From contig CM119266.1 of assembly GCA_051294375.1 (NCBI GenBank), forward strand, positions 10,069,677 through 10,133,676: 64,000 nt of DNA, in the 5' to 3' direction. The translations under genes and the position numbers were made by a program. Under the pieces are notes generated by a model. The model saw nothing but the letters and a program-made list of their open reading frames with translations, searched no databases and was not told where the DNA came from. Each line of letters starts with the position of its first letter. Position 1 is the stretch's first letter. Source of the stretch: Paraspadella gotoi (taxonomy: Eukaryota; Animalia; Chaetognatha). Of the stretch, positions 13,760 through 18,778 are shown piece by piece.

Positions 13760-14252
13760 TCGAAAACAGAACATTTTCGTTGGATGATTGCGGTTGAAGC
13801 AATTGACCGTCATGGTTATGGAATTGATCAAATTCACTCTGGCCGCTAAACAAAAAAAAACCTCTACGACGACATTGCAATGTTGGAGGAATGGTCTTAC
13901 CGCAATTATGAAAAGTTTTTAAAGTTGAAGAATTTAATGAGGGTTGAAAAAAACATTTTGCACAAAGGGAGACAAATTCCGAATCTTGAGAAAGCCGATA
14001 TTTTCTTTTTGAGCTTTGTTTCAAGATTCATATTGAGCCAAAAAAAACAACAACTTGTCGCCAAAATTCAGCGGAAGAGTAACAATGAAAACCATTCTAC
14101 CAAAATCGAAATCGGTGCTAAGGAACTCGAAGTAAATTTGTCAGACATCCACAAAATCGTTTCAAAGTTATTTGACGATCCGAAACAAAAAGAAAAATGG
14201 TGGAGTTATTTTCAAAGACTCAAAGAGGAGCCTTTGGACGAAACGGAAGGAG
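13760..14252 (+). CDS. Exon encoding HEPN-like (DZIP3-type) domain, copy 1, of the kinase-RNase locus
   Basis: Reads EHFRWMIAVEAIDRHG / MELIKFTLAAKQKK / NLYDDIAMLEEWSYRNYEK...GRQIPNLEKADIFFLSFV...KIQRKSNNENHST...LSDIHKIVSKLF, with two frameshifts near 13815 and 13855. It aligns with the exon at 15698. GTAAG donor at 14253. The HEPN call comes from the DIxFL motif plus the (R/S)NxxxH motif at 14078-14095. Confidence 0.6.
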
Positions 14253-14299
14253 GTAAGAAATTCTCTAATACTTTAATTAATTTATATATACTAAAGTGA

Positions 14300-15490
14300 C
14301 CTAGAGTACCGTTCTGACGGAATGGATACACTTGATAAAGGATAGCCCTTTGTTGTTAGTAATCCGGATCCGGCGACAGGCTTGCAACTGGCGATTCAAC
14401 CGGCCCGTCACTCTTTGGCAATGGACAGAATTGTTCGAAAATGAAGCGTTAGCCCAATGCCATATTTTATCACTTATCCAACGGGTAGTAGATATTGTGT
14501 TACCCCAACAATTGCGCGTCAAAATTATAACTACCCTAGGCTCAAGTTTAATATCCTGAGCCAAATCCAATGATACAAAATAAACCACTGGCATACTTCA
14601 CTGTATTGAGACAGACTCAATTAGATTTTTTTAATTGATAGATAAATTTTAAACATTTTTTATGCATAAATTTCATTTTAATTTATAATCATTAAAAACT
14701 TTAAATTTATTTTCCAACAAAGGTGGTTTAATCGCCATGTTGTCGGCAAATCGCACTATAAACCTTTTTTGGTGCATAGGAGGGTGACACTCCAGCTTTT
14801 ATTGAAATAATTCTAGCAAGCTGACAACCATGACCAAGAATCCTTGTCTGTGCCAAAAAGATTATTGGCAAGATGACGAGTTGTTCCAACTGCCTATCAT
14901 TAGCCTGTCCTCCCTGGAAAAACAGAAAAAGCAGGAGTTGGCTTTTGTAAAACTATTGTCAATTTTAAAGAATAGGTAGTTAACGCAAGAAAAAGTGACT
15001 AGTGAGACATAGCATCTCCTGATTAAAAGTTTTTTAATGTAATTTTTACAGAAAAAACAGCTCCAGAAGTGGGTATAATCCTTAGCCATCCTGAGGTTCC
15101 AATCTGTAACATATTAATATTTTATTATGGTAATTCCAATTCAAATAAAAGCAGAAACCAAAGTTTTTATCAATATTTGATTTTTGTAATGACGAATAAA
15201 CAGAGCTGCTTTTGGACAAGGTTTTTTGCTCCATGAAGAATAATTTTTTCTAGCGATGCATAATTTTTTTTACCTTTTTGGAAACCATTTTGAGAAAGTT
15301 TTAATTATTGAATTTAATTATTTATTTCTAGGCTGACTTAATAAGAATTTGTAATTCAATCTCGTCTGCCCGTTAAAGTAAAGTTTCTACGGGTTTTTTG
15401 ATATTATTGATACTAATAAAATAATAATTATCCAAAGACTCTTGTCGTACTCTTTAAACGGGCGACGTCTAGAACGCGCGACACCTTGAG
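14300..15490 (+). CDS. Fragmentary short exons with WD40-like motifs
   Basis: SGDRLATGDSTG/PVTLWQW (14363-14424, frameshifted), GGLIAMLSANRTINLFW (14722-14772) and LSYSLNGRRL (15442-15471), separated by short AT-rich GT..AG intron-like tracts. The exon structure cannot be resolved. Confidence 0.4.
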
Positions 15491-15697: not shown

Positions 15698-16363
15698 GAT
15701 TTTTTACTCTGAACCAATACCGTTGGTTTCGCATTAATGTTGCGATTCAAGATGGTGGAAGAAAAATGCTTCAGCAACTGGTACAGATAGATCTACAGAA
15801 AAAATATAAATTGAGCTTTGATAACAAACTATGGGAGAGGTGGTGTATTGACAACTATGATGAATTAAAAAAATGTCGGTTTTATTTGTCTCAAACAAAG
15901 GTCTCTATAAATGGAAAAGCTGTACCACGTTTAGAATTTATAGATGTCTCTTTTTTACACGGTGTTATTCTCTTAATAAACCCCAAACGAAAGGAGGTCA
16001 TGTGGCGCTTGACAGACTTAAGAATCAAAACCGTTAATCTTGAGTATGATCTCGACGAATCTAAATTCAATTCACTTTTCGACGATTTATTTAAAATCTG
16101 CANNNNNNNNNNNNNNNNNNNNNNNNNNNNNNNNNNNNNNNNNNNNNNNNNNNNNNNNNNNNNNNNNNNNNNNNNNNNNNNNNNNNNNNNNNNNNNNNNN
16201 NNNNNNNNNNNNNNNNNNNNNNNNNNNNNNNNNNNNNNNNNNNNNNNNNNNNNNNNNNNNNNNNNNNNNNNNNNNNNNNNNNNNNNNNNNNNNNNNNNNN
16301 NNNNNNNNNNNNNNNTGGAGTACATTAAGATTCAACAGATTGACGGAGATCAACTGAACCCAA
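15698..16363 (+). CDS. Exon encoding HEPN-like (DZIP3-type) domain, copy 2 (interrupted by an assembly gap)
   Basis: Acceptor TTTCCTTGAAG ends at 15697. Open frame FFTLNQYRWFRINVAIQDGGRKMLQQLVQ...WERWCIDNY...GKAVPRLEFIDVSFLHGV...WRLTDLRIKTVNLEYDLDESKFNSLFDDLFKIC, then N-gap 16103-16315, then YIKIQQIDGDQLNP and a phase-1 GTAAGT donor at 16364. Confidence 0.7.
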
Positions 16364-16401
16364 GTAAGTTAAAAAAATGTTTGGAATTTGATGATAAATA
16401 A

Positions 16402-16512
16402 GCCATAGCGTTTCAGGCTAACTTACTCTACAAATTGAGCTTTTTTAGTATTTTCTGAACTTACCATGCTTCATTGCTTGTGTAATTGTATTAGCCTGAA
16501 ACCGCAAATGGC
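16402..16512. mobile_element. ~110-bp palindromic MITE-like insert inside intron 16364-16656
   Basis: GCCATAGCGTTTCAGGCTAA ... TTAGCCTGAAACCGCAAATGGC form ~20-bp imperfect terminal inverted repeats, with weaker inner complementarity. Confidence 0.6.
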
Positions 16513-16656
16513 AGAAGTTAACTTACTGAGGGTATGTAGCTCATAAAACAAGTACATGTGCAACGCATCCTGGCATTCCTGGGCCACAAATTAATACATA
16601 TTTAATATTTTTATTGCTTTTTGCCTTCAATGACATTACACTTACTTTCTTATCAG

Positions 16657-18600
16657 GTTCCCTTACAACATCTACAGGACAACGCTTTACTATTGATTTC
16701 AAAACACTTCTTTAGATAAAACACACCTAACAATCCCGTAGTTTTTGAGGGCAAAATGCTGACAAAGTGACAGTAGCTATAAAGTCAATACAACTGACTG
16801 ATACAAGGAAACATTTACAATTCAGCGAACAGTGTGAGAATAATTCGTAAGTTTGACAGACATCAAAATCTGATTTCATTTCTTTGGTGATGCAAAGGAC
16901 GAATGCCAGGGCAGACCGACAGTTGGATATCTTTTAATGGAGAAATGCGAAGCTACTTTGAGAGACGGTCGTCAATGGTTTTGAGCTACCCGGACAACTG
17001 ATTTAAAAAGAAAGGCAGTAACTGGAACTGGCAAAAATCTTTTGACTGGTTTAGCAGTACTTGCACACGGGTATAAGACCTATTGTTCACAGAGATATTA
17101 AACCGGATAACTGTTTTATAAAGATAGACGCAAGAAATAATACAATCACAGGAAAACTCGGTGACTTTGGGGTCAGTAAAGAAATGAGTAGTTGTCAATA
17201 TGAAACAACTGCCATCCATGGACATGAATATTATAGATCTCCAGAGCTTTTGCAGTTTCATTTGGAGTCAAAGTAAAATTAACACCAGAAGAACATCATT
17301 TTTCGGATGTTTTTGCACTGGGTGGTACTCTGGGAGAGTTGTTTACAGGAAAACATCCATTTTTAGGAACAAGCGAGTATACCTTTAATATTCAGAATAA
17401 TATTAGTGATGGAAAATTTAATTTTCTACCTTTTTTGAATATCCCGTATGAAGCTAAAATAGGAATGTGCAATCTCATACTGGCCATGACCTATTTTACA
17501 GCGACTAAAAGACCCACCGCAAGTAAATGCATGGAGCATCTGATATTTCAGAATCCTACACACAAAATACAGAAAGAGCGAATAGAGATCAATCAGTTAC
17601 TGAATGATAAAAAGGACCAAGAAGAAAAGCAAATATCATTCAACAGTATAATGAAAACTCAGAATTGATCTTGGGATGTAACGGAAACTGGCTGAAAAGT
17701 TTCTCACCACAATTTCATCCTTACTTGACTGGAGAGCGAGGTAAACTAAGCAAATATGATATCGCCCAAGCTTCTGAGCTTCGGCGTTGTTTGAGAAACA
17801 TCTTCACACATGCGGTTAGTCACTCTGACATTGAGGAAGTAGTGGGAATAACTCAACCGAGACAAGAGACATCCATAGGTACTTTAACAAAATATACCCT
17901 TGGTTGGATTGCCACGACTTGTGGTTCATCAAGTTTCTATGTGACAAACTTGATATTTTTGGGGAGAAAAATTTTTCAATACGAGTTAGAGAACAGATGC
18001 ATCAAGGAATTTGAAGAAAAAAAGGCCATTCTTCCTTTGCAAAAAAATAATGAAATTTTTATTGAGGGAACCGAAAAAATTGTAATTAAGCAAGAAAAAG
18101 TGTTCGCTTTAATTTCTGTCGGGACCATCAAAAAACTACTTCGTTCAAAGAAAAAAAGCAACTTTCTGATTTCCAACTCCTTGGGAGACACGTTATCTGA
18201 CGAAGACTGCGTTCTCGATGGATCGACGCTGCGGGCAGAAAAAATCAGGGAGCTTAAGATCTCTCTCGTAAGCAGAGAAAGATTCCAGATGCAAGAGATG
18301 GAACTTGAAGCCAACGGTGATTTGATGATCGCCGAGCTCGTCGCTGAAGCCGTAGAACAATTGCCACGTGACTTCAAGAAAAAGATCAAATTCATGAGGT
18401 TGCGAAGTTCGAACGATAAGTTGCTGGATCCTAAGAAGACCCTGGAGGAGCAAGCCGTCTTCAGCGGATGCAAGTTGGTAGCCGAGTTCATTGACGATAT
18501 CGACTCGTTCTGGTTACCGATTGGAGGAGAAGATGAAGAGGAGAACAAATCAGAGGGAAGCGATGAAGATGTGATCGAATGGGGCGGTTTGTTTGAGTAG
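16657..18600 (+). CDS. IRE1/RNase L-family Ser/Thr kinase + KEN ribonuclease + C-terminal ubiquitin-like domain(s); long terminal exon with several apparent frameshifts
   Basis: The acceptor TTTCTTATCAG ends at 16656 and joins in phase (SSLTTSTGQRFTIDFKTLL). Kinase motifs: VFEGK, VAIK (16773-16784), IIRKFDRHQNLISFFG, YLLMEKCEATL, HRDIKPDN (17088-17111), DFG (17163-17171), YRSPE, SDVFALG, TGKHPF, KRPTASKCMEHLIF. KEN: NWLKSF...SKYDIAQASELRRCLRNIFTH (17794-17811) and, in a shifted frame, RYFNKIYPWL (17877-17906). UBL-like: 18050-18240 and 18244-18489, then an acidic tail and TAG at 18598-18600. Confidence 0.88.
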
Positions 18601-18778
18601 TTGTTGACGCTGCATTGAAAAAATTTGTGTGTGACTATATCTGTATCTAATCATTAAATTTTTTGAAATTTAAATAGGTATGTCTTTATTGTTTATATCT
18701 ATTATGTAGTATTCAAAAAGATTCAATCTTAAAGTTAAACTTTTTGAGCGGAAAACTAAAAAAATAAGATCGGTTCAG

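Follow-up and report, generated by a model that had tools for sequence, protein, structure and literature searches.

KEN nucleases are known mainly from IRE1, where they are tied to unfolded proteins, and from RNase L, a pseudokinase, where they are tied to 2-5A. In yeast Ire1, H1061 and Y1043 form the acid-base pair, N1057 and R1056 contact the phosphate, and a composite RNA-binding surface forms when IRE1 pairs (passages of PMC3149027). A sensor-less form, IRE1C, has been described from Arabidopsis (portions of 10.1101/651182). According to sections of PMC10400998, RNase L proper occurs in jawed vertebrates only, human OASL carries two C-terminal ubiquitin-like (Ubl) domains, and RNase homologs fall into ten clades that vary in architecture; a kinase-KEN-Ubl arrangement may be among them. 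Excerpts of PMC3710099 supply the definition of the KEN/HEPN motif (R-x4-6-H with a polar residue after the R), KEN expansions in Oikopleura and monocots that consist of KEN without a kinase, and a KEN-UBI fusion present as a single entry, gi:125543109, in Table 1. Kinase-KEN architectures of several kinds and one KEN-Ubl fusion have already been published; a kinase-KEN-Ubl family was not encountered in the titles and abstract openings of the literature searched, a coverage outside which most subscription papers lie.

Here we analyze a gene in a stretch of 64,000 nucleotides (the window) from the chaetognath Paraspadella gotoi. We consider it fairly probable that this is an error-broken eukaryotic gene combining a kinase, a KEN RNase with all four active-site residues and a Ubl tail, whose product is likely a soluble RNase switched on by kinase-KEN pairing. 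What remains new, judging by its sequence, is an apparently intact kinase-KEN-Ubl gene of a family without a name, the frameshifts themselves being artefact. The family keeps the catalytic centre and the kinase motifs, seems to be without both of the known sensors and adds a Ubl domain, which points to a third mode of gating, and the intact relatives of about 550 residues make this gating easy to test. Such genes are lost to annotation where an error-rich stretch breaks them.

Architecture of the gene and its relatives

The original prediction had taken a 311-aa ORF (17665-18600) for a protein holding a pair of compensating frameshifts. The frameshifts do lie inside this ORF, but the ORF itself is only the tail part of a longer kinase-KEN-Ubl gene, in which an N-terminal exon and an intron are followed by kinase, KEN, a helix, Ubl 1, a probable Ubl 2 and an acidic tail. 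The features, all on the forward strand, are:

15700..16363 (+), N-terminal coding exon, fold not recognised; open frame, in frame with the kinase exon after splicing
16364..16656 (+), GT..AG intron of 293 nt; joint 16363->16657 in one X6 contig
16657..17548 (+), Ser/Thr kinase domain (Pfam Pkinase); several indels in the assembly
VAIK 16773, HRDIKPDN 17088, DFG 17163 (+), kinase motifs, from sequence and family alignment
17549..17965 (+), KEN (HEPN-type) ribonuclease domain; Pfam PF06479 below cut-off, family profile, relative's model
17755..17811 (+), active-site residues Y 17755, R 17794, N 17797 and H 17809, with yeast Ire1 spacing
17865..17867 (+), assembly error, one base missing, opening the hidden frame; extra base in run contigs
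17924..17934 (+), frame-neutral +1/-1 error pair; +1 at 17924/27 and -1 at 17934 in 4/4 runs
17962..17975 (+), assembly error, seven surplus bases, return to the long-ORF frame; net -7 in 4/4 runs
18043..18246 (+), predicted ubiquitin-like (beta-grasp) domain 1; AlphaFold2 model and fold match, common to the family
18250..18489 (+), probable ubiquitin-like domain 2; Pfam below cut-off, lacking in the five relatives
18490..18600 (+), acidic tail and stop codon, from sequence

The N-terminal exon, given here with a provisional 5' end, has its first ATG at 15766 and contains a gap of 213 N at 16103-16315; its stretch 15700-16101 gave no match in Pfam, PDB sequences or NCBIfam. The intron has a GTAAGT donor, a pyrimidine tract and a CAG acceptor, and the reading frame is kept across the joint, which was seen in a single contig of run X6 (RNA by guess only, no run being recorded as RNA) and in 0/3 DNA runs. 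This spliced contig extends about 1250 bases past the part matched to the window, and for the N-terminal region about 650 transcript bases have no mapped position in the window. Further upstream, 13850-14600 (+) has an open frame of 149 codons with a GTAAG donor after it at 14253 and perhaps an intron of about 45-50 nt; family searches gave this region no convincing match, and it may belong to a gene of its own or supply additional upstream exons to the kinase gene.

Pfam Pkinase was matched by two kinase fragments (E 9e-13 and 7e-5) among the 11 pieces scanned, five of which had no match. The Lys, HRD and DFG motifs are all present, and the glycine-rich loop, which lies inside the error-rich stretch, looks degenerate. 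All four sequencing runs compared below also hold another contig that matches about 45 bases around the HRD (17082-17126) and then diverges, probably another kinase gene of the same organism.

A search for relatives with a kinase C-lobe fragment as query gave 14 matches, P0001 being the best, and two more searches added P0016-P0019. These five intact relatives, none with an assigned name, are about 550 residues long (one is 585 aa on a 5719-nt contig) and have the kinase-KEN-Ubl order in common. The kinase lysine motif lies at residue 37-78 in four of them, the fifth beginning within the kinase, and HRD and DFG are kept in the window gene and 4/5 relatives. With the 311-aa ORF as query no relative was found among longer proteins (0/5636 candidates), and PDB sequence searches gave chance matches only. 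In metagenome contigs, where 80 loci were kept, the best segments were 24-37% identical with E 2e-13 or weaker, and we read them as generic kinases.

The KEN active site

SKYD (17749-17760) and RNIFTH (17794-17811) lie in the frame of the ORF, and DIHRYFNKIYPWL lies at 17868-17906 in another plus-strand frame. Compared with 100 shuffles, RNxxxH is unremarkable alone (9 in six frames versus 6.6), Y-x12-RN-x3-H was seen once versus 0.12, and the pattern YFxxx[FY]PxL once versus 0.48; the motifs are weak by themselves, and the weight of the observation rests on context. RNIFTH conforms to the KEN/HEPN motif. In the alignment of P0001 with 2rio the window residues Y17755, R17794, N17797 and H17809 fall on yeast Ire1 Y1043, R1056, N1057 and H1061, which bears out the original claim that the motif is intact, and the catalytic Tyr stands 13 residues ahead of the Arg in the window, 4/5 relatives and 6/6 canonical rows.

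The hidden out-of-frame continuation that had been proposed proved real. With a profile of the matching stretch from the five relatives the hidden-frame segment comes out on top among 2394 stop-free segments (E 5e-6, the next at 2.5), and the sequencing-run contigs carry it in frame. The family KEN profile scores 50 bits on the sequence as assembled and 82 bits on a read-through that places X at each break supported by the reads; under a small profile built from IRE1-type KEN rows the read-through does no better than the assembled ORF, both scoring 16 bits. The KEN domain is complete and its true frame at 17868-17906 is the hidden one, as expected from the prediction of compensating frameshifts, on which contigs of 4/4 runs and the homolog-guided alignment agree. 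Conservation of the catalytic residues suggests that the RNase is probably active.

All four runs contain two sequence versions of 16400-18680, which differ by about 5-6% in coding stretches and by 11% in the intron, with depths at 17758-17897 of 61:86, 206:282 and 16:16. They may represent recent paralogs, or else alleles from a sample that was pooled or highly heterozygous.

It is unlikely, though worth weighing, that the gene is intact and its KEN domain weak or dead, the protein being a kinase or scaffold under relaxed selection. Pfam Ribonuc_2-5A (PF06479) matches the broken ORF directly after the kinase fragments with E 0.003 and 18 bits, below its 23.3 cut-off, and exceeds the cut-off in one relative (P0019, 28.4) while falling below it in the other four. 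Relative P0017 has Phe in place of the catalytic Tyr, and P0004 and P0015 are kinase-only in their available sequences. Moreover, the two versions differ by at least 16 non-synonymous and at least 7 synonymous codons, four of the listed differences falling in KEN; this 16:7 ratio among the codons listed is close to relaxed selection and fits fast-evolving defence genes equally. Against a dying nuclease, R, N and H are invariant in 6/6 sequences (the window and 5/5 relatives) at 27-70% identity, all four catalytic residues are kept in both versions, version B alters the Arg codon only silently, none of the 23 changed codons is a stop, and the coding stretches have diverged less than the intron.

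Family placement, ubiquitin-like tail and gating

The best PDB sequence match of the family is yeast Ire1 (E 2.5e-23 with P0001, E 1.8e-35 with the family profile), aligned through the KEN motif. A model of P0001, which is 32% identical to the window protein, reached pLDDT 87 and pTM 0.87 from a 14-row alignment including IRE1 rows; in the fold comparison (VIA) ranks 1-28 are all IRE1 entries (best Z 29.3, rmsd 3.0, 362 aligned), the best fold matches include no chain of RNase L, and residues 1-429 of the model superpose on IRE1 564-963, covering kinase and KEN. The window gene thus resembles IRE1 (yeast Ire1p, human IRE1alpha; PDB 2rio, 3fbv, 6w3a) in the succession of kinase and KEN, the spacing of Tyr, Arg, Asn and His, the VAIK, HRD and DFG motifs and, through its relative's model, the shape of both domains. 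It differs in that no luminal domain or membrane helix was seen in the relatives' available sequences, that a helix and one or two Ubl domains follow KEN where the IRE1 rows stop, and that the identity to IRE1 is about 25% (the window path is 23-25% identical to IRE1 rows versus 30-34% to the relatives). In a midpoint-rooted tree of 17 rows, seven from the family and none from RNase L, a 100/99 branch with a length of 1.75 separates the window, the five relatives and the kinase-only P0004 from the rest; in these sequences the family appears as a clade apart from the IRE1 rows, on a long branch. With RNase L the gene has in common a likely soluble kinase-KEN arrangement with RNxxxH; it differs in possessing HRD and DFG, and no ankyrin repeats were matched in the five relatives or in 15700-16101. 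By its sequence the family would work like IRE1 or RNase L, and we assign it to neither.

The architecture of the gene bears on an improbable reading in which it encodes a membrane-anchored, sensor-less IRE1 paralog like Arabidopsis IRE1C, acting in mRNA decay at the ER. IRE1 is the best solved-structure match both in sequence and in fold, a sensor-less IRE1 matters in vivo according to part of 10.1101/651182, and the 213-N gap or unmapped upstream exons of the N-terminal region could conceal a membrane anchor. The hydrophobicity of the available sequences points the other way. Whereas four of five IRE1 rows show KD19 values of 2.2-2.6 ahead of the kinase, the strongest hydrophobic window of the relatives falls within the kinase (KD19 1.0-1.7), and a hydrophobic segment ahead of it was found neither in the relatives' available sequences nor in 15700-16101 (KD19 1.55); nor were a signal peptide, luminal sensor or membrane helix seen in the available sequences of 5/5 relatives. 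The separate clade and the end of the IRE1 rows at KEN also argue against this placement. Just ahead of the kinase P0016, P0017 and P0019 have a CxxC motif, and the window gene has a longer unrelated exon there, so the N-terminus varies within the family.

An AlphaFold2 model of 17977-18525 contains a confident beta-grasp at residues 23-92 (pLDDT 67-93 by block over residues 21-90), which matches ubiquitin-fold chains throughout the match list (VIA: Z 8.4, rmsd 2.4, 72 aligned) with Foldseek E of 4e-4 to 1e-3. Ubl 1 is accordingly modeled as a beta-grasp ubiquitin-like domain. Residues 458-527 of P0001 have the same order of elements, and the relatives have one Ubl. The following region is probably a second such domain, judging by Pfam matches to Ubiquitin_5 (E 0.002) and YukD (E 0.005), neither of which reaches the cut-off; it found no PDB sequence match, and in the model, which is unreliable there, it is helical with pLDDT of about 40-60 and is not folded as a beta-grasp. 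Conjugated ubiquitin-like modifiers carry a diglycine right after the last strand. None follows Ubl 1 in the window gene or its relatives, and the GG at 18523-18528 comes only some 12 residues after Ubl 2. Given that no properly placed diglycine is present, the tail more probably serves in docking or turnover than as a conjugated tag. Among described proteins, the KEN-UBI entry gi:125543109, compared by its table entry alone, likewise joins KEN to a ubiquitin-like domain. OASL resembles the gene by analogy only, in having C-terminal Ubl domains on an RNA-related enzyme; it is a nucleotidyltransferase-fold protein, and its Ubl match (7sbi, Z 8.2) ranks level with those of many other Ubl chains.

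For the preferred reading, a soluble kinase-KEN RNase with a Ubl tail, we propose by analogy with IRE1 that two kinase-KEN modules would pair to form an RNA-binding surface, that His and Tyr would serve as acid and base with Arg and Asn holding the phosphate, and that RNA would be cut without metal to a 2',3'-cyclic phosphate. Solubility is suggested by the relatives, in which no hydrophobic segment was seen ahead of the kinase. As neither the IRE1 luminal sensor nor the RNase L ankyrin sensor was found, gating would take place in the cytosol, the weakest step of the scheme, with the Ubl tail possibly serving docking or turnover and the N-terminal domain possibly supplying a variable input. 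Our guess for the setting, drawn from an analogy to other KEN/HEPN proteins (as treated in excerpts of PMC3710099), is a response to stress or to viruses. A bolder and rather doubtful extension is a cytosolic kinase-RNase family in which one or two Ubl domains act as the switch. RNA destruction would then be triggered by signals of the ubiquitin system rather than by unfolded proteins or 2-5A, and an RNase L-like defence would have arisen independently in animals other than jawed vertebrates or in other lineages.

Assembly errors and the origin of the frameshifts

We compared the window with four sequencing runs (X1, X3, X5, X6) from three studies, in every case with contigs rather than raw reads; the stretch is present in 9/11 listed runs from three studies. 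The original prediction placed indels around 17865 and 17940. The first site held: one extra base at 17865-17867 is found in 7/7 listed spanning contigs, in 4/4 runs and in both sequence versions. The second did not, the return to the ORF frame lying at 17962-17975, about 30 bases further on, where all four runs have seven bases fewer. Both differences persist with study P1, possibly the source of the window's assembly, left out, and the other two studies agree. The shifts sum to -6, and hence the long-ORF frame resumes at about 17975. Frameshift-aware alignment blind to the reads chose the hidden frame as well, entering it with a shift at 17843-46 and leaving it at 17958-17967 in two of three alignments and at 17931 in the third. 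A return point near 17940 scores 80 bits on the family KEN profile versus 82, nearly equal values, so that only the reads decide between the two.

Upstream, the runs differ from the window at least at 16839, 16874, 16967, 17269, 17564, 17588, 17699 and 17710. The frame-neutral pair at 17699/17710 may be allelic rather than an error; its -1 is not listed for X6. A family-guided, frameshift-aware path over 16773-18240 requires nine shifts and crosses no stop. Across 16666-18005 (1340 bases) the best-matching listed contigs show 28 gap letters and seven substitutions, versus no gap letters and four substitutions in 842 bases of flanks. This excess of indels is confined to one stretch, which indicates a noisy assembly stretch and not decay. 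The window is an AG-microsatellite-rich eukaryotic scaffold with 23 N gaps, six of them of exactly 25 bases. Gaps of 25 N point to long-read gap filling, in keeping with the indel-rich stretch. Since contigs of 4/4 runs carry the in-frame form, we take the frameshifts to be assembly errors rather than recoding or decay.

A real pseudogene allele in the sequenced individual would account for at least nine frame breaks in 1.5 kb, and contigs, which drop rare variants, cannot prove a rare allele absent. We nevertheless judge it very unlikely: same-version contigs are identical to the window letter by letter save for indels (over 17758-17897, no substitution and one gap in 3/4 runs), indels outnumber substitutions 4 to 1 and end at the edges of one stretch, and the aligned path has no nonsense codon. 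Arrival of the gene with a virus or other mobile element, which its long coding exon, fast evolution and few relatives might suggest, is exceedingly unlikely in view of the GT-AG intron, the absence of relatives among pattern matches in viral contigs (0/46), the lack of a PHROGs match for 17611-18597 and the host IRE1 identity of the nearest structures. Real frameshifts resolved by programmed frameshifting or RNA editing, an idea prompted by net-neutral shifts around a conserved segment as seen from the window alone, have a negligible chance of being correct, as runs listed as DNA already carry the in-frame form.

Beyond the intact family, atlas look-ups returned no match at 0.9 or above, and none for P0001 290-534; ubiquitin-type clusters appeared at 0.76-0.78 as leads only. 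Among the other KEN proteins seen, P0002 combines LRR with two kinase domains and KEN, and P0023 from Albula glossodonta combines PARP, kinase and KEN.
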